Shown here piece after piece: positions 14,221 to 44,230 of a stretch of 64,000 bases of DNA. The position numbers were made by a program, and so were the translations under genes. The notes beneath the pieces were generated by a model. That model did no database searches, was not told where the DNA came from, and saw nothing but the letters and a program-made list of their open reading frames with translations. The stretch comes from an uncultured bacterium (GTDB lineage: Bacteria; Babelota; Babeliae; Babelales; JABCYS01), in NCBI GenBank assembly GCA_963705705.1, contig CAVPKK010000001.1, forward strand, positions 1 to 64,000. The letters run 5' to 3'. How positions within the stretch are numbered: the stretch's first letter is position 1; every line of letters begins with the position of its first letter.

Positions 14221-14229
14221 TGTTATTCT

Positions 14230-25648: not shown

Positions 25649-25674
25649 GCTGTTCCTTTTTTTGCAAAATATAA

Positions 25675-26397
25675 TTATTCGTTCTTATACTCATGAAACA
25701 ATATAGTTGATTTAGCTGCCTCTCTATGCTTCTCAAACCATTGCTCAATATCAGGGCTGTTCGCTTTAATCCATGCCAACGCCGCTTCTTTATCACTATA
25801 AAAAGGAAGTGCCGCTCGCAATTCCTCAGAAGAAGAACTGTAATTATAGAAAGCCTTAATATCCTCAGCCGGATAACCGAGCAAACTGCCAATAAGATAA
25901 TGATTGAGATATGCGCTTTCTAATAATGAATATTTATAAAGAAGCAATGCGTCAGTCTTTCCATCCGGTGTAAAAAATATAAATTTACTCAGACGATTTT
26001 TAGGATCAGATATATATTGAAGTTGCAGTTCTGCAAACAATTGTTTCATGCCTTTGATATTAAGTAGCCTGTCTGCAATGTTTTTTTCGGCTATACATAC
26101 ATTTTTATACCCTGCCACAATGCAGCTCATTACAGCTTCTGCATTCCGAGTAGGATGTGAAAGATTTGAGTCGGCTATGCCGGCAACACCCGCTCTGATC
26201 GATGGGCGGCATCGCTCTGCAGTTGGCCGTTCGGTATCGACCAAAAAACGAAACGCATGCTGTGCATCAGGTGAAAGCTTCTGAGCTATTGTCGTATAAT
26301 GAGCCTGCTGCTCAACGGAAGCAGGTATAGGTTCAGCACTTGTGCCGTAGCATTGGCTCGCTATAAATAGATTGAGTACTATAAACTTTGACTGCAT
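25675..26397 (-). CDS. Secreted hypothetical protein, ~250-aa family copy 1
   Basis: Signal peptide; shares AGYKxV, FxPxG, NxYL..LLG, DKxxALxWI with 36827 and 41923. Confidence 0.8.
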   Translation of the reverse strand: MQSKFIVLNLFIASQCYGTSAEPIPASVEQQAHYTTIAQKLSPDAQHAFRFLVDTERPTAERCRPSIRAGVAGIADSNLSHPTRNAEAVMSCIVAGYKNVCIAEKNIADRLLNIKGMKQLFAELQLQYISDPKNRLSKFIFFTPDGKTDALLLYKYSLLESAYLNHYLIGSLLGYPAEDIKAFYNYSSSSEELRAALPFYSDKEAALAWIKANSPDIEQWFEKHREAAKSTILFHEYKNE

Positions 26398-26406
26398 TAC
26401 AATCCT

Positions 26407-28245: not shown

Positions 28246-28326
28246 TGCGAAAAAATTTCGCTCTACAAATTGCGTCGTCACTTGAGCTTCGCTCAAACTC
28301 ATCACGTTGCTTCTCATCACAATCCT

Positions 28327-29427
28327 CTATTCCGATTCTTCTTTTCTTGGTTTCTTGAATGACATTTCTTGTATGGGTGGCCGCATCATTGCGGCACGTC
28401 GCCGCTTAATTTCTTCTTTCTCCAACGCTTCCAGTTCCCTGCGCTCTTCTAGTTGTATCAGATATTTCCAGGCAGATTTTCTGAGGGAGGGTACAGCTTC
28501 TTGTATGGCGACACGACCCAAATATAACTCCGCTCGCGCATTATCTTTCGGAAAACCTAACCCATAGAAAAAAATTAAACCAAGGTGAAACTGAGAGTCG
28601 GCCCGGACCACATAATCTAATTTTTGTTGCGAAGCCAGCTGAAAATATTTCCGTGCATTCACAAAATCCGGTTCATCCAAACCTAGGCCAGAGAAATAGA
28701 GTCGCCCAAGCATTCCTTCGGATCGTATTCGTGCTTCAAGACTGAACTTCTGATTGGCCGCCAACATAAGATATTCACGAGCTGTTGCAAAATTTGGTTC
28801 AACCCCGGCACGACCATGATAGTAGATTTCGCCAATTCGCCACTGACTAAACGCGCGTGCATTAGGATTAACATCTTGAGCCGCAGCATCTTCAAAATAA
28901 CGTAGTGCAATAGCTTCATCCTCATCTACACCAAGCCCCATATAATAGAATTCTCCTAGCCATTCTTGAGCCGCTGCTTTGGCATATGGATTTGCATTCT
29001 GCTCTGCCGCCTGCATAAAATATTTCCATGCACGGGTATAATTTTGCGGTTTTTCCCAGTAATAAAGTTCGGCTAATTGAACTAGCTTAGCTGCCCTTGT
29101 CACTGGATCTGTATCGCGATGTATTGCATCAAGCAGATCATTAATGGCGCCGTTTTTTGCTTTTTTTTCTAGTTTTTCAAATTGCTTAATAAGCACCCTT
29201 ATTTCCGGTTCCCAACAATTCCCCCGATCGCGTAATTGGCTTACCAAATCCGTAACTGCATTATTCAGTTCAGGATTGGGCACCGTTGTTGGCTCCCTCA
29301 TTTCCTTGATCAGATAATTATACTGATCTAATAGAAGGATCGGCATGCTCGGTTGGGATGAAGCAGGCGCTGATGTAGCCGCCATAGAAAAAGGTATACA
29401 GATAATGAGAAGAAATTTGCAGTTCAT
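28327..29427 (-). CDS. Secreted Sel1-repeat protein with NLS-like tail
   Basis: LGEFYYMGLGVDED, LGRLYFSGLG, LGLIFFYGLGFPKD; tail KRRR...KKPRKEESE. Confidence 0.85.
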   Translation of the reverse strand: MNCKFLLIICIPFSMAATSAPASSQPSMPILLLDQYNYLIKEMREPTTVPNPELNNAVTDLVSQLRDRGNCWEPEIRVLIKQFEKLEKKAKNGAINDLLDAIHRDTDPVTRAAKLVQLAELYYWEKPQNYTRAWKYFMQAAEQNANPYAKAAAQEWLGEFYYMGLGVDEDEAIALRYFEDAAAQDVNPNARAFSQWRIGEIYYHGRAGVEPNFATAREYLMLAANQKFSLEARIRSEGMLGRLYFSGLGLDEPDFVNARKYFQLASQQKLDYVVRADSQFHLGLIFFYGLGFPKDNARAELYLGRVAIQEAVPSLRKSAWKYLIQLEERRELEALEKEEIKRRRAAMMRPPIQEMSFKKPRKEESE

Positions 29428-29450
29428 AATTTTTCCAAACTTAATTAATT

Positions 29451-31106
29451 TTACTTCCCACCAAATCTTTTAATTTCTGCATTAAGCAGATCCCTTATTG
29501 GATCTAGAAAAACTGATAAGGTTGTATCCTGACCGAAATATTTTATTTTCATATTCCGATCAATGCCACGAAGCAGGGCTTCAATATATAATGGTTGTGA
29601 AATGCCATAGCCCCCCATTTTTCCAGATGTCCTAAGTGAATCCAATGCATCTTTTACCAACTTAATCTGCGCGGTCATATTATTCTGTTTAAATACATCC
29701 TCTAATGCTTCGAGATTATCCATGAGCCGCTTTTCGTTTGTAGCGTTCAACGAATTCGTTGCTATCTGCTCCCGTTTTTCCTTCAATTCCTTAGCGAATC
29801 GGGCAGCTTTTTCTTTTTCTTTTTGTTCAGCCAGGGCTTTTGATTCGGCTAGCGCTTCCTTGAGCATTTCATCTTCCTTCTGATCTCTTATAATGGTAAG
29901 TGCAAGGCCCGCTTGAACGCGTTCCCACTCGTTTAATGCACCAGACGTAACAGCACGATCTAGATATTGCTGAGCAACCAGATAATTTTTTGGCAGACCG
30001 TCACCCGCAAAGGACATTTTGCCCAAATAATACTGCGCTTTACCTCGGATGGTTGGATTTTCCGCTTGGTTTGCAGAGCGTTCAAAATATTCTCGAGCTT
30101 GTCTGTGATGCTGCATGTCGTACGAAATAATACCTAATGCGAGTTGATTCTCGGGCGTCGACTCCGCGGGATTCCATGATGACCAATGCGACCCAGGAAC
30201 CATAGGTTGCTGCGGCAATAACACTTCTTGAATATACGGCTTTGGCGCTGGCACCCATTCTCCTGCGGCTCTTTCTTCTGCTTCTTTTTTTCTTGCTGCA
30301 TCCATATTTTGATATTTATCAATTATCAATCGGTTTTCTGGATTATCAATTACATCTGCCTCGGTGAAAGCAAATTGAAATCCTAATTCAGGCTCTTTTG
30401 GATTGTAAATAAAGTATTGGACCTTCCCCTGTATTGGAAGTCTATTGAGTGGATTATTTTGTTCTTTAATTTGAAGTGGGCCTGATAGCGGATAATTATT
30501 ACCAAAACGCAATATGTTATAGGTATATGCATCATAATAATGAACAAATAATGGTGCACCAGGTCTCTCGGAAGTGACAACGCGCGCTAGAATCATTGGA
30601 TCATTGTGTTCTTTTTGTCTTTCCAATATCTCACCATATGTTTCCGTGGTAAGTGGCTCTTCATCGGCAAGCACAATCTCTTCTGGTTTGCCACGCATCA
30701 TGGCGCTCACACGCACTGGAATTGCAGTGATTGTTGGTTTTGGTCCCGAAACCGCTGGTTGTTCTGGAATAGCTGGCTTTGGCTGCGGAGCTTGCTCAGC
30801 TCGTTCCTTTTCTTCTTCCTTGGGCATCTCTTTCTTACTAGGCACTTCTTGCTCAGGTAATGTCCCAAGTAAACGCAGTATGGTTTCTGCTTGGGGTTCA
30901 CCGCCAGCATCTCGCAAACGCACAACTAACTCATCTGCCTGTTTACGCAGGGCAGGATCTATCACCTTCGCGAGTCTTAAGACTCTAACTATCCGCGCAT
31001 ATTGGCTTTCCAAACCCAGGGGCAATTTTGGCATTGGAGCTGGCGCGCTTGTAGCGCATAGTTGGCTTGCGATGAATAGATTTAGAATTATATAGTTGCG
31101 CTTCAT
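29451..31106 (-). CDS. Secreted protein: U-box-like domain, Sel1 repeats, UIM-like helix, C-terminal helical domain
   Basis: Start MKRNYIILNL; paralogous to the neighbouring genes; LGKMSFAGDGLPKN; EDEMLKEALAESK. Confidence 0.85.
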   Translation of the reverse strand: MKRNYIILNLFIASQLCATSAPAPMPKLPLGLESQYARIVRVLRLAKVIDPALRKQADELVVRLRDAGGEPQAETILRLLGTLPEQEVPSKKEMPKEEEKERAEQAPQPKPAIPEQPAVSGPKPTITAIPVRVSAMMRGKPEEIVLADEEPLTTETYGEILERQKEHNDPMILARVVTSERPGAPLFVHYYDAYTYNILRFGNNYPLSGPLQIKEQNNPLNRLPIQGKVQYFIYNPKEPELGFQFAFTEADVIDNPENRLIIDKYQNMDAARKKEAEERAAGEWVPAPKPYIQEVLLPQQPMVPGSHWSSWNPAESTPENQLALGIISYDMQHHRQAREYFERSANQAENPTIRGKAQYYLGKMSFAGDGLPKNYLVAQQYLDRAVTSGALNEWERVQAGLALTIIRDQKEDEMLKEALAESKALAEQKEKEKAARFAKELKEKREQIATNSLNATNEKRLMDNLEALEDVFKQNNMTAQIKLVKDALDSLRTSGKMGGYGISQPLYIEALLRGIDRNMKIKYFGQDTTLSVFLDPIRDLLNAEIKRFGGK

Positions 31107-31125
31107 GCTATTCCTTTTTAGCTCG

Positions 31126-31437
31126 CTATTTGCCACCAAATCTTTTAATTTCTGCATTAATTTTATTTTTGATCGGATCTAGGAAGTTGGAAATGGTTGT
31201 CTGCCCGCCCCAAAATGTGATTTTAATGTCCCCATTAATCTTATTTAATTCCTGCAAAGCCGCCTTTAATGGAACCAGCCCATATGGTGTAAATAAGCCG
31301 ACTCCAACTTTGGATGCATCAAGTGATGCTGCAATATTTTTTACCAACTTGACCGATTCTTGCATGTTATTTTCTTTAAGCGCTGCTTCTAATGTCGCTA
31401 AGCTATCAATAATGTCTTTTCTGTTGGCTAAGCTCAT
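31126..31437 (-). CDS. C-terminal domain ORF, homologous to the 29451 C-terminus; probably the -1 frame continuation of 31434..33104
   Basis: Both end ...FLDPI....NAEIKRFGGK; its ATG overlaps the upstream TGA. Confidence 0.75.
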   Translation of the reverse strand: MSLANRKDIIDSLATLEAALKENNMQESVKLVKNIAASLDASKVGVGLFTPYGLVPLKAALQELNKINGDIKITFWGGQTTISNFLDPIKNKINAEIKRFGGK

Positions 31438-33104
31438 TGCTGCTTCTTTTTTTCTTTCTCTTCTCTCGCACGCTGTGCAGCCTTTTGTTTTTCCTCTTGT
31501 TCGGCATGGGCTCGGGATGCCGCCAATCCAATTTGCAAGGCTGTTTCTTCCTGTTCAGCTAGTAGCTCAGAAACCATCTTTTGTGCTTTTGCTTTGTTGA
31601 TCAAAGATCTAAGATTCCTACTTGCAGCACTTAAATATTCTATAGCACGTGGAATATCCTTCTGCACTCCATTGCCTTGTGCATACATCATGCCCAGATA
31701 AAACTGAGCATTGGCTCGAGCTTGGGGACTTGCTGTCTGGTTTAATGCCTTTTCAAAATGTTTCTTTGCTATCACATAATTTGGTGGCATTCGCGCGCCC
31801 AGCAAATTAATGCCTTCGTACGCAATTTCCCCAAGACGCCATTCAGCTTCTGCCTGAATTTTGGGGTTTACTGTCTGGTTGGCGGCTTCAGTTAAATATT
31901 GCAGAGCAGTTGCAGTATTTTTAACTACTCCATACCCATGAAGAAATAATTCTCCTAGCCAGCCGTTCGCAATAGCTCGCGCGTTCTGATTTACCGTCTG
32001 ATTGGCTGCTCGGCCAAAATAATCTAAAGCTTGCGCATAATCATGGCGCCGCTCAAATATCAGCCCAAGACTTACCTGAACGCCAGCCCGCGTAAGAGGG
32101 TCTGTTTCAAGACTATTTGCAGCTCTTATCATTGCTGCCTCCATACTTTCAACTGGCATTGGCTGAGGGTGCGGTTGCGGCTCAGGTATCATAGGCTGCT
32201 GCGGCAGTAATACCTCTTGAACATAAGGCTTTGGCGCTGGCACAAATTCGCCGGCAGCTCGTTCTTCTGCTTCTTTCTTCCGCGTCGCATCCATGTTTTG
32301 ATAGCGATCAACTATTAATCTTGTTTCTGGATCAGTAATAAAATCAGCTTCTGAGAAGGCATATTGGAATCCAGCTTCGGGATTTTTTGGTTCATAAATA
32401 AAATATTGAACCTTGCCCTCTATTGGCATCCGATTAAGCGGATTATTCGTTTCCTTAATTACCAATGGCCCAGATAAAGGATAATTTGGCCCAAAGCGCA
32501 TGGTATTGTAGGTATAAGCATCGTAATAATGAACAAACAGTGGACCGCCAGCCCGTTCACGGGTAACTACACGGACCAAAATCATTGGATCATTGTGCTC
32601 TTTTTGGCGATCTAATAATTCGCCATAAGATTCTGTAGTAAGAGGTTCATCTTCAGTAAGCACAATCTCTTCAGGCTTGCCTCGTATCAGACCGCTTACG
32701 CGCACTGGAATTGCAGTAATTGCTGGCTTGGGTGCTGCAGCCGCTGGTTGTTCTGGAGCCAGAGGCTGTTGTGGAACCGCTGGTTTTTCTGGGGTAACCG
32801 GCCGTACCACCGTAGCTGCCTGTTCCTTTTCCTCGGGGGCTGGTTTCTTGCCTGCCATTCCCAATATGCCGATATAATGCTCGAGGGTTAATGCTTGCGG
32901 CTCGCCGCCAGCTTCTCGTAAATGAATAATTAGATCTTCAACTTCTTTACGCAAGCGAGGATCGATTTTAGCAAACCGCAACGTTCGCAGCATGGCTGTA
33001 TATTGCTTCTCCAAGTTTTGAGGCAACTTTGGAAATGCAGGTTCGCTTGTTGCGCAGAGTTGGCTTGCGATAAATAGATTCAGAAATAGATATTTGAGCT
33101 TCAT
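31434..33104 (-). CDS. Secreted protein: U-box-like domain, Sel1 repeats, UIM-like helix
   Basis: LGELFLHGYGVVKN, LGMMYAQGNGVQKD; close paralog of 29451. Confidence 0.85.
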   Translation of the reverse strand: MKLKYLFLNLFIASQLCATSEPAFPKLPQNLEKQYTAMLRTLRFAKIDPRLRKEVEDLIIHLREAGGEPQALTLEHYIGILGMAGKKPAPEEKEQAATVVRPVTPEKPAVPQQPLAPEQPAAAAPKPAITAIPVRVSGLIRGKPEEIVLTEDEPLTTESYGELLDRQKEHNDPMILVRVVTRERAGGPLFVHYYDAYTYNTMRFGPNYPLSGPLVIKETNNPLNRMPIEGKVQYFIYEPKNPEAGFQYAFSEADFITDPETRLIVDRYQNMDATRKKEAEERAAGEFVPAPKPYVQEVLLPQQPMIPEPQPHPQPMPVESMEAAMIRAANSLETDPLTRAGVQVSLGLIFERRHDYAQALDYFGRAANQTVNQNARAIANGWLGELFLHGYGVVKNTATALQYLTEAANQTVNPKIQAEAEWRLGEIAYEGINLLGARMPPNYVIAKKHFEKALNQTASPQARANAQFYLGMMYAQGNGVQKDIPRAIEYLSAASRNLRSLINKAKAQKMVSELLAEQEETALQIGLAASRAHAEQEEKQKAAQRAREEKEKKKQQ

Positions 33105-33303
33105 GCTGTCCCTTTTTTTACCAAATATAGTTTTTCGTGCTTATGCTCATGAAAAATATAGTTGATTGGGAACCATAAAAACAAGAGTTTTTATTTACAG
33201 GACAACAAAATTGATTGTTTTGGGGGGCGAGTTAACGTATTTATTAAGATTCGCTCTTTTTCTTAGCCGCTTTTTCTTCCATGCGCTTAATCTCAAAGTT
33301 TAA
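33102..33303. repeat. Duplicated block (USP 3' end + promoter + RBS), copy of ~34931-35123
   Basis: CTTAGCCGCTTTTTCTTCCATGCGCTTAATCTCAAAGTTTAA, TAAAAACAAGAGTTTTTA and TTTTCGTGCTTATGCTCA occur in both spacers. Confidence 0.85.
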
Positions 33304-33340
33304 ACAATTGATAATCTGATGTTTCCATAAGAATATGAAA

Positions 33341-34933
33341 CTATTGCAATGAACAACAGGTATTTTGTCCTCTTTGCCTCAAGTATCCATCTTCCTCATC
33401 TGATTCTATTTCTGGTGGTGGTTGAGAAGGCTGCGGCAACAACACTCCTCGACGAGATCTTTGTTCTTTTTCCTTCTGTTCGGCTAAAGTTTTCGATTCA
33501 GCTATGGCTCTTTTGAGTGTTGTTTCGTCTTGCTGTTCATGCATTTGACGATTTATCGAAGCGAGTACTTTTGTAGCCTCACGTTGAGCATATCCCCTTC
33601 TAACCCATCCACTCTTGAGGGCAGCATCTAAATATTCATGGGCTAAGCCCTTATCACGTAGCACAGCGTAGCCATTATAGTACATAAATCCAAGATAGAT
33701 TTGGGCATTTGCCCGCGCCTGAGGGCTCGCTAGTTGATGTAATGCTTTTTCAAAATAGCGTCTTGCCACTACATAATCGGGTGCCACTCTGATAGACGGT
33801 TCTTGGTGCGTATCTATATAGCCGTTATAATTAATTTCGCCAAGCCGCCATTCAGATTCGGCTTTCGCTTTAGGATCGACAATCTGATTTGCTGCATTTT
33901 TAAAATAACCTATCGCTTTTCTCATATGTTGAGGCACACCTTGTCCAAATAAGTAAATTTCCCCCAGCCATCCTTGGGCAATAGCTCGAGCATCAGGATT
34001 TACAGTTTGATTTTCGGCCAGCTCATAATATTCTCGCGCTCGTGCATAGTCTTCGTGGCGATAATAAATGCCAGCAAGCTGTGTTTGTAAATTTGCTCGA
34101 ACAAATGGATCTTCTGTTGCGTCTATCAACCCATGCAAGGCGGCGATTTCAAAATCCTCATTGGGAAGCGTTTGCGGTCGAGGTTGCACTGCGCGTTGTG
34201 GCTGAGGTTCCCCGTGGAATCTGGGGCCTGGTTCTTGCCGATACGGTATTGATTCAGGCACCCGTTCTCCAGAGACATGCTCATAAGCCTCTTTCTTTCG
34301 ACTCGCGTCAATATTTTGGTTCTCATCAACAACTAATCTGATTTGAGGATTCTTTATAAAATCAGATTCCGAGAAGGCATATTGAAATCCATTCACTGGT
34401 TCTTTAGGATTATAAATAAAGTATTGGACTTCGATTATTGGTTCATTATTTAGTGGATCATCAATATGAACTATATTTAAAGATCCCGATAAGGAATAAT
34501 TTCGACCAAAGCGCCATACATTGAATGAATAGGCGTCGAAATAATGGACGAATGATTTATTATCAGCGGGATTATACGTGACTACGCGAGCCAGAATCAT
34601 CTGCTTATTATGTTCCTTTTGCCTTTCCAATAATTCACCGTAGGTTTCTGCGGTTAGCGGCTCGGTATCCTCAAGATTGATGCTTTCAGGTTTTCCTCGA
34701 ATTAAAGGACTTACCTGCACCGGGATAATTTGTGCCTTAACCTCGGGAGCTGCTGAGATTGTTGGCTGTTCTGGCATTGCGGGCATAAGCTGCGAAGCTT
34801 GCGCGGCTCGTTTTTTTTCTTCTTCCTTAGTCATTTCTTTCTTAATTAGCAATTTTGGCATTGGAGGTGGCGCACTTGTAGCGCAAAGTTGGCTTGCTAT
34901 GACTAGATTTAGAAATACACAGATGAGCTTCAT
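33341..34933 (-). CDS. Secreted protein: U-box-like domain, Sel1 repeats, UIM-like helix, C-terminal CaaX (CCSLQ)
   Basis: LGEIYLFGQGVPQH, LGFMYYNGYAVLRD; DETTLKRAIAESK; ends NTCCSLQ. Confidence 0.85.
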   Translation of the reverse strand: MKLICVFLNLVIASQLCATSAPPPMPKLLIKKEMTKEEEKKRAAQASQLMPAMPEQPTISAAPEVKAQIIPVQVSPLIRGKPESINLEDTEPLTAETYGELLERQKEHNKQMILARVVTYNPADNKSFVHYFDAYSFNVWRFGRNYSLSGSLNIVHIDDPLNNEPIIEVQYFIYNPKEPVNGFQYAFSESDFIKNPQIRLVVDENQNIDASRKKEAYEHVSGERVPESIPYRQEPGPRFHGEPQPQRAVQPRPQTLPNEDFEIAALHGLIDATEDPFVRANLQTQLAGIYYRHEDYARAREYYELAENQTVNPDARAIAQGWLGEIYLFGQGVPQHMRKAIGYFKNAANQIVDPKAKAESEWRLGEINYNGYIDTHQEPSIRVAPDYVVARRYFEKALHQLASPQARANAQIYLGFMYYNGYAVLRDKGLAHEYLDAALKSGWVRRGYAQREATKVLASINRQMHEQQDETTLKRAIAESKTLAEQKEKEQRSRRGVLLPQPSQPPPEIESDEEDGYLRQRGQNTCCSLQ

Positions 34934-35060
34934 GTTGCCCTTTTTTTACAAAATATTGTTTTTTCGTGCTTATGCTCACGAACAATATATTTGATTGGGC
35001 TACCTAAAAACAAGAGTTTTTACTTATAGGGCAACAAAATTGGGTGTGTTTGAACGTATT

Positions 35061-36758
35061 TTATTGAGGTAAGCTCTTTTCCTTAGCCGCTTTTTCTTCC
35101 ATGCGCTTAATCTCAAAGTTTAAGCGGCGGATATCGCGAACAGCTTTTTTGGCAGCCTCACCTGTTCCTTGTGCGGCAATCTTTGCTTGTTCAAGTTCCG
35201 CCCGCAATTGGCCAAGTTCATCCTTAGGTAGCGGGACTAATTCTGCAGGTTTCTCAACTTTTTTCGGTTGCTCTATCTCAGCAACTACCGGTTGTTCCAC
35301 GATTCTAGCCGGTTGTCCTTCAGGAGCTTCATTTTCTGAAGGAGGAGCAGACGGGATTGGTAATTGGCTAGGTATAATGACTTTACCCCTTTTTTCTTTT
35401 TCCTCTTCTGGCATTTTCATTTTTGGCACTGATGATGCCTCTTCCTCTTCTTTTTCTGCCGCTTCTTTCTTTTCTACTTCTTCCGCTTCATAGATCAAAA
35501 TGTATGGAAGGGCATTTTCCCGCACAAATCCTTTTTTCTCAAGATCTTTCATTTCGCCAATAGTTTTATGATCTATTTCTTTATCATCATTGGTATAAAA
35601 CCAGCCGGCTGTCGGAGTGCGCACGTACGCAACATAATGCCCGCCTTCGCCGGTGCCAAGATGGCAAATAGCAGCATTAAGCCGATACATGCCACTGCTT
35701 TTGATTTCAGGATCTTGATATTTCTTAATAGACCATCGCAAGGGAATAGAAATTTTGCTATCAATGCGCGCTGAACGATAAACCACCCTTTCCTCTTTCT
35801 CAACTTTTTCTGTTTTGGCAGCGATTTTACTGGCAGGAGCTTTCTTTATTGCTTCCTTTTCTTTTCCCTTTTCTTCAGCTTCTTTCTTAGGAACCTCTAC
35901 CTCAATAACAGTCGGAACACTTTCTGTTCTTTTTATAAGGACTACCAGTTGCTGTGGCGGATGAACAATGATCGTATGTTCATCGAAATAACGATCAGTC
36001 AGCGTAGTCAATGTAAACATGGAACCGGTTTGCCGCAGATCAGGCGGTATGGCCAATAAAAGTTCGTATTGATCTTCGGCCCGGCGAACTCCTTCAGACT
36101 GCGTTTTAAAATTAAATAATGTGTCTGGCAAAAAATCTTTTGCAGTCCCGCCAGTTGATTCAAAATTTTCAAGCCCGTTACGAAAAGCATTAAGCAAGGA
36201 ACGAATAAATTCATCAGGATCGCCTTGCCTATATACCGGCCTACCTTCTTTAGTTATTGATATTGGCGGATTGATGGTATCGTATGCAGCCAATAACATA
36301 TCGTCACTTATAGCATTTCCACGCATTTGTTTAAATACTTCGATAAAGTTAAGTGCCGTTTGATTCCCTTCATAGATTGCTTCATGAGCAAATAAAAAAT
36401 TAATCAATGGCTGTATATCATATAAGGCTTGAAGAGCGCCGTTCATAAAACATACGTTGTTAGGATTTGGTAAAGAAACCGGCTCTCCCTCAACGCGCAA
36501 TCCGAATTGCTTTTTTATCAATATCCGCAGCTTATTTTGATCGTACATACCGCTATATACATCCCAGGCTTGTTGAAGCAAAGGCTCATAAAAAGCCTTC
36601 AAAACATCTTCAGATAGATTAGGCAACATAGAGCGAACAATTACTCTTGCTTCAGCTTTTTGCTGTTGGGTGGGTTGTGCCGGTTTGGGAGCTGCACGTT
36701 TTCCATAACATGGTGCCGCTAAGAATAAGATGAGCAGTACATTTGAAATCTTCATCAT
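35061..36758 (-). CDS. Secreted USP-family (peptidase C19) deubiquitinase
   Basis: Cys box LPNPNNVCFMNGALQAL; QGDPDEFIRSLL; His box YRLNAAICHLGTGEGGHYVAYVR...WFYTNDD; PYILIYE; signal peptide. Confidence 0.9.
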   Translation of the reverse strand: MMKISNVLLILFLAAPCYGKRAAPKPAQPTQQQKAEARVIVRSMLPNLSEDVLKAFYEPLLQQAWDVYSGMYDQNKLRILIKKQFGLRVEGEPVSLPNPNNVCFMNGALQALYDIQPLINFLFAHEAIYEGNQTALNFIEVFKQMRGNAISDDMLLAAYDTINPPISITKEGRPVYRQGDPDEFIRSLLNAFRNGLENFESTGGTAKDFLPDTLFNFKTQSEGVRRAEDQYELLLAIPPDLRQTGSMFTLTTLTDRYFDEHTIIVHPPQQLVVLIKRTESVPTVIEVEVPKKEAEEKGKEKEAIKKAPASKIAAKTEKVEKEERVVYRSARIDSKISIPLRWSIKKYQDPEIKSSGMYRLNAAICHLGTGEGGHYVAYVRTPTAGWFYTNDDKEIDHKTIGEMKDLEKKGFVRENALPYILIYEAEEVEKKEAAEKEEEEASSVPKMKMPEEEKEKRGKVIIPSQLPIPSAPPSENEAPEGQPARIVEQPVVAEIEQPKKVEKPAELVPLPKDELGQLRAELEQAKIAAQGTGEAAKKAVRDIRRLNFEIKRMEEKAAKEKSLPQ

Positions 36759-36826
36759 TGTCCTTTTAAAATTTTCCGGGTCTTCTTTCCAACTATACAA
36801 AATTATAGATGCGATCAGCAAGATTC

Positions 36827-37597
36827 TTAGACTAAAAGGGTAGAATCATCCTCTAATTCATAATCTTCGAATTTTATTAGGCTAACTTCCTTTTGATGCT
36901 TAGCAAACCAATCTTCTATGCCTTGTGTATGTTCTTCGATCCAAGCAAGAGCCTCCTTCTTGTCTTGTTCAAATGCAATCTCCCAAGACGATTGCGTTCC
37001 GCATTTAAAACAACAGTTGTCACAAGCATGTTCTGATTTATATGACATTTGAACTAAAGCTTCATCATGCCCAAGCAAACGCCTGATTAAATATTCATTA
37101 GCAACCGATAGTTTTTTTGCTTTAAAAATCAACAACGCCTCAATCCCACCCTGTGGCGTAAAAAAAAGCATATTTGATCTATTGGACTTGTCTTCATGGT
37201 AGCTCATATAGGAAAAGTGTAATTCTGCAAGCAATTTTTCCATATTTTTATCGCCATTTAACATCGTGTTAAATAGTTTGGCATCTTCCTCCTGATCAGG
37301 CATCCATACATTTTTATAACCTGTTATCATATGCGCAAGCACAGACTCAATGCCACCCTTTTTTACTGCTCCTGCATTAAGATTTTCTGCTTCGCATACG
37401 AGTGCTCTGCAAAGTTCCATACTTGGCTCATAGGTATTAATGAGTCGCCAGAAGGGGCGTCTGGCACTTTCAGAAAGTTGCGTTGACATAGCGCGGAAGC
37501 GTGCTTCATCCTTTGGCGTCCTTGGCGAAGGGGAGACCCTCGTTGCTTGCAAAGAAATTATGGGTGAAAAAATGATGAGAAGAAAGAAACGATTCAT
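36827..37597 (-). CDS. Secreted hypothetical protein, ~250-aa family copy 2
   Basis: Paralog of 25675 and 41923. Confidence 0.8.
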   Translation of the reverse strand: MNRFFLLIIFSPIISLQATRVSPSPRTPKDEARFRAMSTQLSESARRPFWRLINTYEPSMELCRALVCEAENLNAGAVKKGGIESVLAHMITGYKNVWMPDQEEDAKLFNTMLNGDKNMEKLLAELHFSYMSYHEDKSNRSNMLFFTPQGGIEALLIFKAKKLSVANEYLIRRLLGHDEALVQMSYKSEHACDNCCFKCGTQSSWEIAFEQDKKEALAWIEEHTQGIEDWFAKHQKEVSLIKFEDYELEDDSTLLV

Positions 37598-37732
37598 CGC
37601 GCTCTTGCCCTAGTTGAATGAGATCATACTAATACAATAGGGCATTTACATGCAGATAAGCAATAATTTAATGAGTTGAGCAGGTTTCTTTGTTCAGGAT
37701 AGATCTGAATTGAAAGGCTTTAAGAAGTAGAA

Positions 37733-37754
37733 AGGGGAGCCATTTGGCTCCCCT
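37733..37754 (-). terminator. Rho-independent terminator
   Basis: AGGGGAGCC-loop-GGCTCCCCT, then T-rich sequence on the minus strand. Confidence 0.7.
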
Positions 37755-37763
37755 GTAGAATTA

Positions 37764-38018
37764 TTAGCGACGGCATTGGCCGTTAACGCAAGCTGGCTTT
37801 TTAACGCCGTTTTGGGTTGTATTCCCAGCGGCTTTATTTGCCTTACGACCGTGGCCTTTGCCATGGTTCTTGCCGTGGCAGCGTTTACCTTGGCCATTTG
37901 CTGTTTGGGCAGTTTTGCCTTTTCCAGCATGATGGCTGTGCTTATGACCAGCAAAAACTGGGGTAGCAGCTACTAAAGCTAACACTGATAAAAGTGAAAG
38001 AATGTTCTTTCTTAACAT
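37764..38018 (-). CDS. Small secreted His/Lys/Gly-rich basic protein
   Basis: Signal peptide MLRKNILSLLSVLALVAATPVFA; GGAG RBS; terminator downstream. Confidence 0.75.
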   Translation of the reverse strand: MLRKNILSLLSVLALVAATPVFAGHKHSHHAGKGKTAQTANGQGKRCHGKNHGKGHGRKANKAAGNTTQNGVKKPACVNGQCRR

Positions 38019-38247
38019 ATTTAGACTCCATTTAAATAATAGGGTTAAAGGATGATTTCATAATACATATAGAATTAGGGGGCGCAAAAGGTGGGGGGTG
38101 GGGTAAATCCAGACAAATTGTCAGAAAATGACTAAACTGCCCGTTCCCCGAAAGGCTCTTTCGACCCCGAACTCCCTTAAAAGGAACTCTGGTGGCCTAT
38201 TTACCATCAGGGATGATGAAAACGAAAATTTGGAAGACAATACTATC

Positions 38248-39798
38248 ATGATCACTAGTTGGCTGACCCTCGTACCCCCATTGGCGGTGTTATTTCTCGC
38301 CCTTATTACCAAAAAAATTGTACCTGCCCTTTTGTCGGGCATTGTTGTTGCAGCTCTTATAGTTTCCCATTGGGCACCTTTGGCAGCCGTTGAACTTGTG
38401 GCAACTAAAGTTTACGGGGTGGCAACAGACATTGATAATTTATTAATGTTTGGGTTTTTGCCCGTTCTTGGCACCCTGATTATGTTGGTTAAACATACGG
38501 GCGGTGCGCAGGCATGGGTTCATTTGATATCCAAGAAGGTTCACACAAAAAAACGTGTTGAATTAGCTACGCTTGGTTTTTCGTCGCTTTTTTTCATGGA
38601 TGATTATTTTAATACGTGGACGGTTGGCCCAGTAATGCATCCTTTAACAGATCGTTACGGGATTGCTCGCGCGAAATTAGCATTCTTTATTAATATGTTA
38701 GCGCCAAGCTTGGCAATTATTTTTCCGGTCTCAAGCTGGGTTGCAGTAATTCTTGGTCAGATGGAACAATCAGGCATATCAACGCAACCAAATGCTCTAA
38801 TTAAAAGTGATGCTTTTAGCATGCTCCTGCAGGTAATACCATTTATGTTTTATCCGATTATCGCGATTGCACTCACCTGGTTTATTGTCGCAGTAGGCAT
38901 TTCTTTTGGTCCCATGAAAGAACAAGAAGATATAGCCACCGAAGCGCATCACGAAATGCTGGTACCAGCCGGAAAAGGTACCGTTTGGGATTTCATTGTG
39001 CCACTCGGTGTGCTCATGATACTTTCGCCATCAGTCATTTTAGCAACTGGTGGTTACTGGTTATTTGGGGGATCGTACTCATTTCCTGATGCACTCAGCC
39101 ATGCCAATATTTTTAAAGCGTTACTGCTGAGCTCGGGCACCACTTTGCTTTTCACAACCATCTACTATAGCGTTATGGGCAAACTGACTGTGCGTGACTT
39201 TCTTACGCTTGCAAAAGAGGGTACTACAATGATGACCTCTTCTATTACGTTGCTCTTTCTCGCCTTTGTTTTTGGTAGCTTTTTACGTACCGATTTACCG
39301 GCAGGAAACTTCTTGGCTACAACCGGCATAGCTTCATTACCATTACCGCTATTACCTTTTATTTTCTATGCCATTGCTGCTTTCAGCGCAAGCGCTGTTG
39401 GCTCAGCTTGGGGTACTATCATGGTATTTTTCCCGGTAGCTGTACCAATGTTTGTAACTTTATACCATGCCACCCCGCCTGCTATTGCGGCATACCTACC
39501 ATTGCTTGCGCCAACCTTGGGCGCAATATTATCTGGTGCTGTGGTAGGAGCTCAAGTATCGCCAATCGCCGACAATGTAATAACCTCATCTCTTGCGACA
39601 GATACTAATGTTCTTTTGCATGTAAAAACGCAAATTCCGTATATCATTCCGGGCATTATCGCGACTGGTATTTCCTATTTGATTTCAGGATTTATGGTAC
39701 CGACCATGCCACTACTCGGCTGGCTGGTTTCATTAGTAACTGGACTTGCTCTTACGTTTGGCATGCTGCTTGTATTGAATGGACGAAAAATTAAATAA
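38248..39798 (+). CDS. Na+/H+ antiporter NhaC-family membrane protein
   Basis: FFMDDYFN...VG..MHPLTDRY.I.RAKLAF; GSAWGT; GAILSGAVVG..VSPIADN. Confidence 0.85.
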   Translation: MITSWLTLVPPLAVLFLALITKKIVPALLSGIVVAALIVSHWAPLAAVELVATKVYGVATDIDNLLMFGFLPVLGTLIMLVKHTGGAQAWVHLISKKVHTKKRVELATLGFSSLFFMDDYFNTWTVGPVMHPLTDRYGIARAKLAFFINMLAPSLAIIFPVSSWVAVILGQMEQSGISTQPNALIKSDAFSMLLQVIPFMFYPIIAIALTWFIVAVGISFGPMKEQEDIATEAHHEMLVPAGKGTVWDFIVPLGVLMILSPSVILATGGYWLFGGSYSFPDALSHANIFKALLLSSGTTLLFTTIYYSVMGKLTVRDFLTLAKEGTTMMTSSITLLFLAFVFGSFLRTDLPAGNFLATTGIASLPLPLLPFIFYAIAAFSASAVGSAWGTIMVFFPVAVPMFVTLYHATPPAIAAYLPLLAPTLGAILSGAVVGAQVSPIADNVITSSLATDTNVLLHVKTQIPYIIPGIIATGISYLISGFMVPTMPLLGWLVSLVTGLALTFGMLLVLNGRKIK

Positions 39799-39820
39799 TT
39801 TAAATATTGGATCTGGTATT

Positions 39821-41824
39821 TTATTCTGGTTCTTCTTTTTTTATCCGTTTACTTGGTTCTTCTTCTTCACCCCATAGCTGTCGTTTAGCTAAAAGGCGGC
39901 GTTGTTCTTCTTCTTCAGCCTTTACTTTTCTTTCGCGGGTTCTAACAGCGGCAGCTTCCATATCGGCTATATTTTGTTCCGCTTGTTTTCGCAATTGCGG
40001 ATTTGCATTCGGATCCGTAACAATCTGATTATAATAATCCCACGCAAACACAAAATCTTGTAATACACCTGGGCCGCCACGCATATATATATTACCGAGA
40101 AGTAGTTTGACATCTGGGCGATCTGCAATCGGCGCAAGATATCGCCGCGCCAAACCGAAATCCTGAATAACACCGTGGCCCCCGTTGTAAAAGATGTTAC
40201 CAAGTAAATACCGAGCTTGGGCCAGTTTAGCCGAACTAAGTTCGTTAGAATTTACCGCTGCTTCAAGATACATCACAGCATGTCCATAATTCTGTTGCTT
40301 ATCATAAACTAACCCTAGACCATATCGTGCTTCCGCAGGCAGATCATTTGGTATTAATGGATGGCGCAAGACCTTATCAAAATAATTTTGCGCCCGCCTT
40401 AAACTTTCTGGATCCCCAAGATTTAGATAATAATTCCCAAGAGACAGTTCGGCCCGAGCTTGAGAAACCCAATCCACCCCTTGTGCAGATACTGATTCCC
40501 AATAGCCGAGTGCCCGGGGCACATCTCGTTGTACCCCATGTCCATACAAATACATTGTACCCAAGAAGAAACGTGCTTTTTGCAAAGCATTCCAAGAATT
40601 TGCTGGATCAGGATTATCAATAACAGATTGGAAGTATCGCGCTGCTCGTGGATAGTCTTGCTCAACACCAAAGCCGCCCGTATAATAGATTTCACCAAGG
40701 AGCTCCTGCGCCTGCTGCCAGTAACCACCAGAACGTTCTCGCTGTATATGCTCAAAGATTTGGCTTGCCAGGGCATAATTTTTTGGGACGCCTTCACCTG
40801 CATAATAAATTTTCCCCAATGAAAGCGTTTTGGCAGCCCTTTTATCGGGAGCTACGGTACTGCGATTTATTGAAGCAAGCAAAGTACCAATTCTTCGATT
40901 ACGGGGAACACCACGAGGAAGAGTTAACTGCGGTATGGCAGCTTGCGGTTGGGCTGGAGCAGGCCGTGCCCGGGCGGGTTGCATTGGTGGCAGCAATACC
41001 TCTTGAACTTGAGATCGCGGTGCGGATACCCATTCACCGAGCCTCCGTTCACGGGCTTCTTTTTTGCGTGCCTCACTCATATTTTGATATTCATCAACTA
41101 CTAATCGAGTCTCAGGGTTGTTTCTAAAATCGGTTTCAGAAAAAGCTAATTGAAATCCACGTGTCGGATGGTTTGGATCATAACTAAAATATAGAATATC
41201 TCCGCTTATGTTGAGATTATTTATCGGGTTTGAAGGATGAACTACGCCAATTTTCCCCTTCAATGGATAATTATTACCAAAGCGCCATACATTAAATGAA
41301 TAAGCATCGTAGTAATGAATTAACATTTTGCCTGCTTTGTCATAGGTCACAACGCGGGCAATGATCATCGGGTCACCATGCTCTTGTTGTCGTTGCAATA
41401 TCTCGTTATAGGTTTCATGCGTCAATGGTTCATTATCGGCAAGATTTAATTCTTCTCCTCGGCCGCGAACCAATGTACTCATTACAATAGGAATGGTTTG
41501 TGGTTGCGCGGGCTGCACTGCTGGTTCACTTTCTGGTTGAAGGGCCACGGCAGCTTCTTGTTTTTTTTCTTCCGCAGCTCGCTCTTCCATTAGAGATCTC
41601 AACGCATCGCCTTGGGGTGCTCCTACCGTGTGCAAGCGACGTATTGCATCCTCTACCAACTGGCGAACATAGGGAGTAATTGTCGGTGACTGATGTATGA
41701 GTTTTACCATTCTGTCATAGAGATTTAACAAATATGGTGCGATGGGTCGTCCGGGCGCTGGCGCTGAAGTAGCTACCAAAGATAGTGGCAAGCATAGGAC
41801 GAAGAGTAAGTTAATTAGCTTCAT
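39821..41824 (-). CDS. Secreted Sel1/TPR protein with U-box-like domain and NLS-like tail (paralog of 26407)
   Basis: LGKIYYAGEGVPKN, LGTMYLYGHGVQRD; tail KRQLWGEEEEPSKRIKKEEPE. Confidence 0.85.
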   Translation of the reverse strand: MKLINLLFVLCLPLSLVATSAPAPGRPIAPYLLNLYDRMVKLIHQSPTITPYVRQLVEDAIRRLHTVGAPQGDALRSLMEERAAEEKKQEAAVALQPESEPAVQPAQPQTIPIVMSTLVRGRGEELNLADNEPLTHETYNEILQRQQEHGDPMIIARVVTYDKAGKMLIHYYDAYSFNVWRFGNNYPLKGKIGVVHPSNPINNLNISGDILYFSYDPNHPTRGFQLAFSETDFRNNPETRLVVDEYQNMSEARKKEARERRLGEWVSAPRSQVQEVLLPPMQPARARPAPAQPQAAIPQLTLPRGVPRNRRIGTLLASINRSTVAPDKRAAKTLSLGKIYYAGEGVPKNYALASQIFEHIQRERSGGYWQQAQELLGEIYYTGGFGVEQDYPRAARYFQSVIDNPDPANSWNALQKARFFLGTMYLYGHGVQRDVPRALGYWESVSAQGVDWVSQARAELSLGNYYLNLGDPESLRRAQNYFDKVLRHPLIPNDLPAEARYGLGLVYDKQQNYGHAVMYLEAAVNSNELSSAKLAQARYLLGNIFYNGGHGVIQDFGLARRYLAPIADRPDVKLLLGNIYMRGGPGVLQDFVFAWDYYNQIVTDPNANPQLRKQAEQNIADMEAAAVRTRERKVKAEEEEQRRLLAKRQLWGEEEEPSKRIKKEEPE

Positions 41825-41922
41825 CGGATCCTTTTGTTGTATACATTGCATTGTATATACAGCTTAAAGGATCGGAGCCGGCCAAAACAATAGTTGTTGA
41901 TGATTCGTAAAGAAAAATATAA

Positions 41923-42693
41923 TTATGGAAATACGTGAAGAGTTACGCGGTCATTTTGTGTTTTGAACCATTCTTTATAATCTTTTGAATGCTCTTCAAT
42001 CCATTTTAATGCTTCAGCCTTATCGTGCTCAAAAATCTTTTTCCACGAATTGATTTCACCAAAACAAGAGCACCCGTCATCACTCTTCTGACCAAGTTCA
42101 TAGGCTTCGATAATATCTTGTTCGTCATGCCCAAGGAGATGGCGTTTTAAATATTGGTTCTGAAGCCTGAGATATGTGGACTTATAAAATAATATTGCAT
42201 TCCTTTCTCCCTCAGGTAAATACAATAGTGAGTTATGCGATAAAGCAAATTCAATTAATGAAAAATTTGCGATTTCCTCTTGCGTCAGTTCTCGTGTAGG
42301 AAATAGCATATGCGTGATATGCAGCTCATTAAACAGTAATCGCATCGCCCTTTCTTTCAGTAAGGCATTCAGTTTGGGGCGGCCCTCATCACCATCTAAT
42401 AGCCAAACCTTCTTATAACCGGCTACCAGGTGGGCAATAATCGGCTCAATTTCTTTTTCGCCCATTGCAGCCGCATTCAGGCCTTCTTCTTCACACGTTA
42501 ATGTGCGGCATTGTTCTGGAGACGGTTGATATTTTTGGATTAATCGTAAAAAACGTTGCCGTGCATCCGCAGTTAACATCTGAGCGATATCAGGTCTCAT
42601 GGCAGAAAGTTTTGGGGTGGTTATCGGAATGACCTGCGTAGCAGACAACGATAAAGAAAATACTGAAACAATTGAGGTTACGATTTTTTTCAT
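41923..42693 (-). CDS. Secreted hypothetical protein, ~250-aa family copy 3
   Basis: Paralog of 36827 (Y.PS.E.CR.L.CE.E.LNA, LLGHDE, FE.DK.EAL.WIEEH). Confidence 0.8.
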   Translation of the reverse strand: MKKIVTSIVSVFSLSLSATQVIPITTPKLSAMRPDIAQMLTADARQRFLRLIQKYQPSPEQCRTLTCEEEGLNAAAMGEKEIEPIIAHLVAGYKKVWLLDGDEGRPKLNALLKERAMRLLFNELHITHMLFPTRELTQEEIANFSLIEFALSHNSLLYLPEGERNAILFYKSTYLRLQNQYLKRHLLGHDEQDIIEAYELGQKSDDGCSCFGEINSWKKIFEHDKAEALKWIEEHSKDYKEWFKTQNDRVTLHVFP

Positions 42694-42824
42694 TTTTACT
42701 TTCCTTTATGTTAAACCTTATTCTTATAATACTGGATCAGCTTGGGCAATAGCAAGCCTTTCCCGCAATGCAAAAGATTTCGATATTGATAAGCTACCTT
42801 TCCCTAATACAGATAAGGAAATAG

Positions 42825-44069
42825 ATGATTAGACGAGTTACCGGCACCCAAGACTTTTTAGACTTAACCTTACTTAATTTCATTCTTGAGCAATCCAAGA
42901 AATATCTAAAACTTCACCACTTCTCAGAAATTATGGTGCCAATTTTAGAGCCAACAGAACTTTTCAAACGATCGCTTGGCGTAGAAACCGATGTGGTAAA
43001 AAAAGAGATGTATCTCATCTCAGGGCACGAAGATATTTGTTTACGTCCTGAAGCTACTGCATCAACAGCCCGCGCCTTTGTAGAAAACGGGATACAAACA
43101 ACGCCCTGGAAAGTTTTTACCTGGGGGCCCATGTTTCGTCACGAACGGCCACAAAAAGGTAGGTACCGGCAATTCCATCAGTTAAGCATCGAGGTGATAG
43201 GTACGAATGCGATTGCCCAAGATGTGGAAGTTATCACCCTTCTCGATCGTCTATTTTCACAAATTCTTGCCTTTGATTCATATGCGTTGCTTATCAACTT
43301 TTTGGGCTGCCATGAAGATCGCGATGCTTTTAAAGTTGAGCTTCGAAAATTTTTAGAACTGCACGCAAATGAAATCTGCGATACCTGCAAAGTGCGCATG
43401 AATACTAATATTATGCGTGTCTTTGATTGCAAAAATGAGCATGATAAACAGCTCTATACTCAAGCACCACAAATTATTAAACATCTTTGCAAAATATGCG
43501 AAGCAGAATGGCAAGAACTTCAAGAGCTTCTTGAGCTTCTCAGCGTTTCATTTCATGTACAACCAACTTTAGTTCGTGGATTAGATTATTACCAAAAAAC
43601 CGTCTTTGAATTTGTATCTGGAAACCTTGGCGCACAGAATGCCTTCTGCGGCGGCGGGCGATATCACAAGCTAGTAGAAATTGTCGGGGCGAAAGAAGAC
43701 CAGCCGTGCGTTGGTGCAGCCATTGGCATAGAACGATTATTGCTGATGCTTGAACTAATAAAAGATAAATTGCCATTGCCACAGCAACCAGCAATTCAGG
43801 CGGTTATCCCTGTTGAAAAAGCGCAGCATGCAATCGCTTTGCTGGTTGGGCAAGAGCTCATTAAACATGGTATTTGTGCCCAGGTCATGATTGAAAACGA
43901 TTCGCTTAAAAGCATGATGCGCCAAGCCAATAGAATTGGCGCTCAACATGCCATCATCATTGGCACTGATGAACAGGCTAAAAAAGAAGCGCGCGTTAAG
44001 AATATGATGACGGGTGAAGAGCAAAGTGTGAAACAGGCTGAGTTAGTCCAGTTTTTGGGTAAAAATTAG
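42825..44069 (+). CDS. hisS: Histidine--tRNA ligase
   Basis: LRPEATA, MFRHERPQKGRYRQFHQ, LVRGLDYY, GGGRY, GIERL. Confidence 0.98.
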   Translation: MIRRVTGTQDFLDLTLLNFILEQSKKYLKLHHFSEIMVPILEPTELFKRSLGVETDVVKKEMYLISGHEDICLRPEATASTARAFVENGIQTTPWKVFTWGPMFRHERPQKGRYRQFHQLSIEVIGTNAIAQDVEVITLLDRLFSQILAFDSYALLINFLGCHEDRDAFKVELRKFLELHANEICDTCKVRMNTNIMRVFDCKNEHDKQLYTQAPQIIKHLCKICEAEWQELQELLELLSVSFHVQPTLVRGLDYYQKTVFEFVSGNLGAQNAFCGGGRYHKLVEIVGAKEDQPCVGAAIGIERLLLMLELIKDKLPLPQQPAIQAVIPVEKAQHAIALLVGQELIKHGICAQVMIENDSLKSMMRQANRIGAQHAIIIGTDEQAKKEARVKNMMTGEEQSVKQAELVQFLGKN

Positions 44070-44230
44070 ATACGTAAACTAGTTCGTTAACAAAGCAAGC
44101 AAACGCAGCAGAGTGTGGACTGTATCAAAAGTTGAGTTTCTTGCGGTCATTTCAGTAAAAACTCTTGATTTTTACCAGCACGACCTGCTACCTTTAAATC
44201 ATGATATGACAACAACATTAAAAGGATATC

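Follow-up and report, generated by a model that had tools for sequence, protein, structure and literature searches.

A USP-family gene in a bacterial window

Can a USP, a member of a mainly eukaryotic protease family, be a bacterium's own gene, and would its product act on the ubiquitin of a host? The question is raised by a 64-kb stretch of DNA (contig CAVPKK010000001.1, positions 1 to 64,000; hereafter the window), in which a single minus-strand open reading frame (ORF) at 35061..36758, uninterrupted by any internal stop, encodes a protein of 565 amino acids (aa), P0001. An initial annotation, made from the letters of the DNA, had described this product as a secreted bacterial deubiquitinase of the USP family (peptidase C19) with intact catalytic boxes. 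Here we report that P0001 has each sequence and fold characteristic of peptidase C19 that was open to testing, and we consider it likely that the protein is a catalytically competent cysteine isopeptidase of a Dependentiae-like bacterium, exported to act on host ubiquitin.

The Pfam UCH search that the initial annotation had proposed bore out the family assignment. P0001 matched UCH (PF00443) with a score of 96.3 bits, where 23.9 bits is the gathering score, and the E value of 2.9e-27 puts this match far beyond chance; on the protein it spans residues 96-423, and on the profile it takes in positions 3-254 of 254. When PDB sequences were searched with phmmer, 66 chains were returned at E <= 0.01, led by USP2 (E 1.4e-8), and among the 60 of these 66 matches that were listed all were from the USP family (named USP or Ubl carboxyl-terminal hydrolase). 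The motifs that the annotation had quoted (Cys box, QGDPDEF, His box, WFYTNDD and PYILIYE) are all present in the 565-aa ORF, at coordinates checked by script. PYILIYE, described as terminal, does lie at residues 418-424, but it ends the catalytic domain and not the protein, as 141 more residues follow. The layout of the gene is as follows.

35061..36758, minus strand: whole USP gene, stop codon 35061-35063 included; product P0001, 565 aa
36702..36758, minus strand: signal-like segment, residues 1-19; n-region MMK, hydrophobic core, then CYG/KR (the slash marks the presumed cut)
36474..36701, minus strand: N-terminal extension, residues 20-95 (76 aa); three predicted helices, 31-44, 50-63 and 74-84
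35487..36473, minus strand: USP (peptidase C19) catalytic domain, residues 96-424; from the PF00443 match (96-423), the model and Foldseek
36423..36458, minus strand: Cys box NVCFMNGALQAL, residues 101-112, with catalytic Cys103; oxyanion Asn98 just upstream
36207..36227, minus strand: QGDPDEF, the USP 'QQD..EF' box, residues 178-184; Glu183 aligned with the conserved, ubiquitin Arg72-binding Glu of canonical USPs
35787..35903, minus strand: Lys/Glu-rich insertion, residues 286-324; 56% Lys plus Glu, predicted disordered
35625..35666, minus strand: His box CHLGTGEGGHYVAY, residues 365-378; catalytic His374 and aromatic gatekeeper Tyr375
35583..35603, minus strand: WFYTNDD, residues 386-392; Asn390 as presumed third catalytic residue, and invariant Asp391
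35487..35507, minus strand: PYILIYE, residues 418-424; last palm strand and end of the catalytic domain, containing Tyr423
35229..35486, minus strand: Glu/Lys/Pro-rich linker, residues 425-510; mostly predicted disordered, with a short helix predicted at 431-441
35064..35228, minus strand: two confidently predicted C-terminal helices, 513-529 and 534-562 (residues 511-565)

Conservation of the catalytic residues

P0001 and its orthologue P0003, described below, were aligned with 133 other USPs from the search of representative proteins (135 sequences in total). Twenty-one columns were at least 85% conserved among the 133, and in 21 of 21 both P0001 and P0003 agree with the consensus, a count biased upward by the choice of the 133 for their similarity to the query. 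These columns include N98, C103, Q110, D180, E183, H374, Y375, W386 and D391, in agreement with the intact boxes of the initial annotation. The column of the catalytic Cys103 holds cysteine in 133 of 135 sequences, and that of Asn98, the oxyanion asparagine five residues before it, holds asparagine in 129. Within the QQD..EF box, the residues of P0001 recur in 119 (Q178), 133 (D180), 119 (E183) and 108 (F184) of the 135 sequences. His374 is shared by 134 of 135, the gatekeeper Tyr375 by all 135 and Tyr423 by 133. The column of Asn390 is divided between asparagine (79/135) and aspartate (53/135), next to the invariant Asp391; we take Asn390 to be the third residue of the triad from the numbering of USP7 and USP2. 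In canonical USPs, the conserved glutamate of the QQD..EF box is described as binding ubiquitin Arg72 (PMC10719079), and the aromatic residue after the catalytic histidine is described as a gatekeeper (PMC10643670, PMC10719079).

Predicted fold

An AlphaFold2 model of P0001, run on the 135-sequence alignment, had a mean predicted local distance difference test (pLDDT) score of 83.1 and a predicted template modelling (pTM) score of 0.71. The pLDDT was mostly above 90 in the catalytic domain, and outside the insertion blocks scored mostly 84-97. Foldseek returned 322 matches in the PDB at E <= 0.001. The leading ones were USP28, USP14, USP7, USP2, USP1, USP16 and USP30, with a probability of 1.00 and target-normalised template modelling (TM) scores of 0.59-0.71, at a structural-alignment identity to solved USPs of 15-19%. 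Among predicted viral structures, the best matches were USPs of Megaviridae and Hyperionvirus (target-normalised TM 0.72). Because of the family match, the conserved residues and this fold, we infer that P0001 is catalytically competent. The subdomains in the AlphaFold2 model, all encoded on the minus strand, are these.

Residues 103-215, minus strand: helical thumb
Residues 217-289 (strands 217-221, 228-236 and 262-289) and 320-331, minus strand: finger strands
Residues 341-425, minus strand: palm

The initial annotation had suspected a shortened Fingers region, and the alignment agrees: the span from the LF to the KR(F) motif, the first half of Fingers, measures 62 residues where the median is 85, and only 1 of the 133 other USPs has a shorter one. 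The cysteines of P0001 are limited to C17, C103 and C365; none lies in Fingers, and P0001 therefore has no zinc ribbon there. The four-Cys ribbon is common, not universal, in the family, with at least two CxxC motifs in the Fingers span of 20 of the 133 other USPs. The opposite holds for the hairpin between the KR(F) and FP motifs, which at 62 residues is the longest of all 135 (median 20 and maximum 45 in the 133; 57 in P0003). It carries about 40 extra, Lys/Glu-rich residues. The Lys/Glu-rich insertion of the initial annotation (residues 286-324, 56% Lys plus Glu) was recovered as the tip of this long beta-hairpin (strands 278-289 and 320-331), in a block with a pLDDT of 54-71. Presumably the KR(F)-FP hairpin corresponds in position to USP7 blocking loop 1, which contacts ubiquitin, and the elongated hairpin with its Lys/Glu tip may contribute to substrate recognition. 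Judged from the sequences compared, this design of Fingers and hairpin is atypical and common only to P0001 and P0003.

Bacterial origin and relatives

The USP gene is chromosomal and bacterial, and it is kept in two genomes. The window carries rpoA, secY, ribosomal-protein genes, the genes for EF-Tu and EF-G, rseP, hisS, pepP, recR, yidC, murI, murC, a trmD fusion and ffh, and bacterial genes lie on both sides of the USP gene, inside one co-directional gene array. Its GC content (0.417) and third-position GC content (GC3, 0.334) are within the range of its neighbours. The orthologue P0003 (560 aa; 49% identity to P0001 by BLASTP and 55% in pairwise alignment, over 99% of the length) sits on an independent contig, L001, of a metagenome-assembled genome. 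L001 keeps the gene order of the window: murI, yidC, recR, pepP, hisS, the Na+/H+ antiporter gene and the USP gene, then genes for DUF5092/Sel1 proteins. The match in GC and GC3 together with the syntenic orthologue indicates that the USP gene is integrated in the bacterial genome and inherited there, and that it is no contaminant; with the housekeeping flanks and SecY, this upholds the bacterial location given in the initial annotation.

Six of the 120 listed matches to the SecY protein of the window bore organism names; five of these were Candidatus Babeliales/Dependentiae (62-66% identity) and the sixth was labelled Limnocylindria (59%). The source bacterium is thus most likely a Babeliales-like member of the Dependentiae, an assignment that in this analysis draws on SecY as its single marker. 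Dependentiae are a widespread, almost uncultured phylum living inside protists.

Beyond the catalytic domain, P0001 and P0003 share 47% identity in the N-terminal extension (residues 20-95), for which a Pfam scan of P0001 gave no family match, and 49% in the C-terminal helical part (residues 511-565). The linker between (residues 425-510) is weakly kept, at 29% identity with 27 gapped positions. Our guess is that the C-terminal helices might serve targeting or oligomerisation.

Close relatives of the pair are rare. A full HMMER search over 1.84 billion representative proteins gave 435 matches at E <= 0.001, of which three reached E <= 1e-30: P0001 itself, P0003 (E 5.5e-151) and a vertebrate 'low quality' protein of 3205 aa matching in 20 stretches. 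No other bacterial or unnamed relative in this set scored better than E 6e-14. Among 20 of the best 150 matches that were looked up, three were vertebrate 'low quality' or 'hypothetical' multi-USP predictions, and the others bore generic function names at most. Word-index searches with the whole of P0001 and with residues 88-428 returned only its own copy and P0003, and one scan of genome contigs found only L001. A quick maximum-likelihood IQ-TREE tree of the 135 USPs over 364 columns joined P0001 and P0003 on a long stem with 100% support in the Shimodaira-Hasegawa-like approximate likelihood ratio test (SH-aLRT), but it contained no wider supported clade around them, and the nearest other rows were at least 2.67 changes per column away. 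As the tree gives the pair no supported partner, we name no donor of the gene. In the language-model Atlas, the USP domain was nearest to Nucleocytoviricota USP clusters (0.93-0.95), a proximity in feature space that serves as a lead and is no sign of gene transfer.

Predicted export

At the N-terminus of P0001, MMKISNVLLILFLAAPCYG followed by KR, lies a hydrophobic core whose Kyte-Doolittle mean over 11 residues is 2.84; among 15 cytosolic housekeeping proteins encoded in the window and used as controls, one attains a mean of 1.75. P0003 has an equivalent signal-like segment at its N-terminus. On the two properties considered, hydrophobicity and small residues ahead of the presumed cut, residues 1-19 are predicted to be a Sec-type signal peptide, as the initial annotation had proposed, and P0001 is probably exported. 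Precedents exist for the later steps of such a route. Type II secretion components are reported as common to seven TM6 genomes (PMC4776705), and the Burkholderia USP-type deubiquitinase TssM is described as a type II secretion substrate (PMC10719079). Chromulinavorax is reported to have signal peptides on 44% of its coding sequences and 78% of its ankyrin proteins, and to bud vesicles (PMC6561590).

From its sequence, the start codon of the gene is ambiguous between ATG 36758, ATG 36755 and TTG 36821. AAGGA lies 2-5 nt upstream of both ATGs; the database copy, P0002, begins at the second ATG, 36755, one codon later, and has 564 aa. The longest form of the ORF, 35061..36821, begins with the TTG. 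A scan of 34700-38200 for promoters and terminators was uninformative, with 7 promoter-like sites where 6.6 were expected and 5 terminator-like sites where 3.5 were.

Proposed function and alternatives

We propose that the N-terminal signal would direct P0001 to the Sec translocon and that the protein would leave the cell by a TM6/Dependentiae type II secretion system or in outer-membrane vesicles, or else stay tethered at the cell surface. In contact with the host cytosol, the cleft between thumb and palm would bind the C-terminal tail of ubiquitin, with Glu183 pairing with Arg72 and Tyr375 packing on Gly75 (roles as in PMC10719079 and PMC10643670), and the triad Cys103-His374-Asn390 with the oxyanion Asn98 would hydrolyse the bond after ubiquitin Gly76. 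Ubiquitin could thus be taken off host proteins, the bacterial surface or the bacterial compartment, which would blunt ubiquitin-dependent degradation or autophagy. Export, host targeting, ubiquitin specificity and the roles of the insertion and C-terminal helices are the predicted parts of this proposal.

Several points weigh against it. The activity of P0001, its export and its localisation in the host are predictions from sequence. The choice of comparison proteins by similarity favours high conservation counts, and the short, cysteine-free Fingers may bind ubiquitin differently from those of canonical USPs, or weakly. The N-terminal segment could equally be a membrane (signal) anchor, and Sec export on its own ends in the periplasm; no secretion-system gene lies within the 64-kb window. 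The bacterium may be enclosed in a vacuole of its host or may lie directly in the cytosol. The Limnocylindria label among the SecY matches and the use of one marker likewise count against the assignment to Dependentiae.

Where the protein ends up also bears on what it cleaves. P0001 might be a USP-fold hydrolase at the bacterium's own surface that prefers ester-linked ubiquitin on lipopolysaccharide (LPS) or the envelope, as proposed for TssM, a role that we regard as improbable. A Sec signal outside any type III, IV or VI context would place the protein in the envelope or just outside, and its reduced Fingers are unlike those of canonical USPs; the TssM authors argue from type II secretion that ubiquitin is removed at the surface of the bacterium (PMC10719079), and a preprint reports esterase activity on ubiquitylated LPS (PMC10371091). 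However, P0001 differs from TssM in architecture: finger strands are predicted (217-236, 262-289 and 320-331), the model shows a helical N-terminus and lacks an Ig-like domain, and no extra loop follows the His box, the span from the histidine to Y423 being 49 residues against a median of 47. We know of no surface-ubiquitylating ligase in protist hosts, and made no search for one. Roughly the same low probability attaches to the idea that P0001 is a protease for a host ubiquitin-like modifier (UBL), such as NEDD8 or another ending in Gly-Gly, or has dual specificity, with ubiquitin not its main substrate. Bacterial USPs can cross-react and S1-site specificity is not fixed by sequence alone, yet most characterised USPs prefer ubiquitin, the residues that read its tail (E183 and Y375) are conserved in P0001, and all three Simkania USPs are reported to react with ubiquitin-propargylamide (Ub-PA; PMC10643670).

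We think it very unlikely that the protein serves the bacterium internally, whether as a periplasmic cysteine protease with a substrate other than ubiquitin or as a peptidase belonging to a bacterial defence system or ubiquitin-like conjugation system. The predicted signal peptide would take P0001 to the periplasm at least, and contact with the host is a step that we infer. But for a system of the Bil/Bub type, scans of the neighbouring ORFs with Pfam or NCBIfam detected no E1, E2 or Ubl gene, and 7 of 7 locus proteins had no PADLOC match; the neighbours are instead signal-bearing eukaryote-type repeat proteins (Sel1 and leucine-rich repeat (LRR) proteins) typical of host-interaction genes, and the residues that bind the ubiquitin tail are conserved. 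It is scarcely credible that eukaryotic or giant-virus DNA was mis-assembled or mis-binned onto a bacterial contig, even though USPs are mainly eukaryotic and those of Nucleocytoviricota supply both the closest clusters in feature space and the top structural matches among viral models: the flanking bacterial genes of the co-directional array, a GC and GC3 like those of the neighbours, and the orthologue in the same housekeeping neighbourhood on an independent contig argue against it.

Comparison with known USPs

P0001 shares with eukaryotic USPs (USP2, USP7, USP14 and USP28) a full-profile Pfam match, the Cys, QQD and His boxes, the oxyanion asparagine, the gatekeeper and the thumb-palm-fingers fold. 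It differs from them in being bacterial and in its predicted N-terminal export signal, in lacking a zinc ribbon, in its shorter first Fingers half and longer KR(F) hairpin, and in its additions, a 76-aa helical N-terminal extension and a tail of 141 aa with two helices at its end. Like P0001, giant-virus (Nucleocytoviricota) USPs are compact domains (250-414 aa), and they provide the nearest Atlas clusters and a TM score of 0.72, but identity is at most 18% over the best matches and no phylogenetic link is supported.

Among bacteria, the initial annotation had held that USP-type enzymes are reported from only a few intracellular species such as Burkholderia and Simkania. This holds for experimentally shown bacterial USPs, which in the sources we cite are Burkholderia TssM and Simkania SnUSP1-3 (PMC10643670, PMC10719079), but it does not hold for predicted ones. 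In 2015, three predicted secreted C19 ubiquitin C-terminal hydrolases were described in Babela massiliensis, a member of the Dependentiae (PMC4378268); one of its C19 proteins, Babela_gene_298 (459 aa), was positive in all three SignalP modes (PMC4378268, supplement file 9), and members of COG5533 were also recorded in Amoebophilus, Protochlamydia and Cardinium (PMC4378268, supplement file 2). Amoebophilus USPs are reported to be expressed early in infection (PMC8831229). Our literature search, in a limited collection, found no paper on Dependentiae USPs beyond Babela. P0001 resembles the Babela proteins, with which it was compared by their published description, in its likely phylum, in C19/COG5533 family, in its predicted secretion signal and in compact size. 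Both are known as predictions, and the insertion and C-terminal helices are known for the P0001 side only.

The three Simkania negevensis proteins, with which P0001 was likewise compared by description, are bacterial USP-type enzymes with canonical active-site residues, a gatekeeper and hydrophobic regions, from an amoeba-infecting intracellular bacterium (PMC10643670). Unlike P0001, they come from Chlamydiota and their activity has been demonstrated: SnUSP1-3 are reported to react with Ub-PA, and SnUSP1 and SnUSP2 to cleave ubiquitin chains (PMC10643670). TssM, too, is a bacterial USP-fold deubiquitinase with a reduced ubiquitin-recognition region, and it relies on Sec plus type II secretion; in contrast to P0001, it is described as lacking the whole of Fingers and as having a 'Littlefinger' loop near the domain end and an N-terminal Ig-like domain (PMC10719079). 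P0001 is not 'fingerless' in the manner of TssM, as its finger strands are predicted and its LF-to-KR span is shortened to 62 residues, not deleted.

Neighbouring genes

The USP gene belongs to a run of ORFs with signal-like N-termini.

23732..46445, no single strand: run of 13 signal-bearing ORFs including the USP gene, interrupted by the Na+/H+ antiporter gene and hisS

All 13 ORFs have an N-terminal hydrophobic stretch (11-residue Kyte-Doolittle mean 1.75-2.95), whereas one of the 15 cytosolic controls passes that threshold. By composition, the run has six paralogues with DUF5092 (PF17010) and Sel1/TPR-type repeats, two Sel1-only proteins, two 256-aa proteins, one 240-aa protein, the USP and two LRR proteins; in one of the six, Sel1 itself falls just under the Pfam cut-off. 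The 240-aa protein and the two 256-aa paralogues belong to no family. Scanning the USP together with its neighbours against PADLOC and NCBIfam gave 0 matches.

The six DUF5092 copies of the window lie at 26407-34933 and 39821-41851, all on the minus strand, and L001 has two at 12009-14910 on the plus strand; in both places they adjoin the USP gene. Each is signal-bearing and has a conserved DUF5092 domain of about 145 aa (26-41 bits against a Pfam cut-off of 27), followed by Sel1 repeats. In an Atlas feature search, the domain was nearest to NleG, U-box and Baculo_RING clusters at 0.83-0.89, below the 0.9 line at which proximity counts as a lead only. A U-box-like fold was left unconfirmed by every other test. 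In a model of a full-length DUF5092 protein the domain had a pLDDT of 60-86, and every Foldseek match of this model was taken by the Sel1 repeats; a domain-only profile found nothing better than E 1.1 among PDB sequences, and a Pfam scan of the domain at E <= 10 returned DUF5092 alone. A search of the limited literature collection found no paper mentioning DUF5092. A C-terminal motif common to the USP tail and the Sel1 paralogues was considered and rejected (BLASTP E 2.0 or worse).

An unlikely but far-reaching idea joins these genes to the hairpin of P0001: the two-member lineage of P0001 and P0003 may have a remodelled ubiquitin-recognition surface, which bacteria would then have redesigned independently for a second time, the Littlefinger of TssM being the first, and the gene may lie within a ubiquitin-manipulation island. 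If so, the zinc-ribbon half of Fingers would have been cut back and the 60-residue hairpin would recognise ubiquitin, one type of ubiquitin chain or an acidic surface of the host. The USP would be the eraser, and the six flanking DUF5092 Sel1/TPR proteins would be new U-box-like ligases or E2-binding effectors; this last part leans solely on the weak feature-space likeness (0.83-0.89) to NleG/U-box, which no other test confirmed.

The two 256-aa paralogues, at 36827-37597 and 41923-42693 on the minus strand, are 38% identical (E 4e-54); both have a signal-like N-terminus, and neither gave a Pfam, NCBIfam or PADLOC match. One of them lies directly upstream of the USP gene, where L001 has no such gene. 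Two tandem LRR proteins (373 and 367 aa; 44231-46445, plus strand) have signal-like N-termini ending AQA/IS and show a weak NCBIfam likeness, far below the cut-offs, to the LRR regions of type III effectors (SlrP, XopL and XopAC). They are encoded between pepP and hisS, where L001 has an AAA-ATPase/PD-(D/E)XK gene. An 84-aa ORF at 37764-38018 on the minus strand has a signal-like N-terminus, a His/Lys/Gly-rich body and no family match, and just downstream of it lies a terminator-like hairpin (37754-37733) of 9 pairs, 7 of them G-C. Elsewhere in the window, a 473-aa ORF at 56800-58221 on the minus strand encodes TrmD (tRNA m1G37 methyltransferase) fused to a second SPOUT-type domain, Methyltrn_RNA_4 (PF09936, E 2.7e-57). 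Ribosomal-protein operons often carry leader elements; an Rfam search of the whole 64-kb window, which includes such operons, gave 0 matches at gathering scores.

Significance

Secreted C19 enzymes are already predicted in Dependentiae, and P0001 is a very divergent further example, not a new kind. Because C19 hydrolases of Babela were reported in 2015 and USPs of Simkania have been shown to be active, its novelty is smaller than the initial annotation assumed, and with secreted C19 enzymes already predicted for the phylum it raises no new question. P0001 is unusually isolated in sequence, with one close relative among 1.84 billion representatives, and its atypical Fingers and hairpin make it a reasonable target for probe assays and structure determination. 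The tools with which Dependentiae manipulate their hosts are known from predictions only, and the role of P0001 is probably to tamper with a protist host. Activity of USP-class bacterial deubiquitinases has been demonstrated in only two genera, and each added lineage helps to reveal how often this eukaryotic family has been taken up by intracellular bacteria and to what extent its fold can be remodelled.

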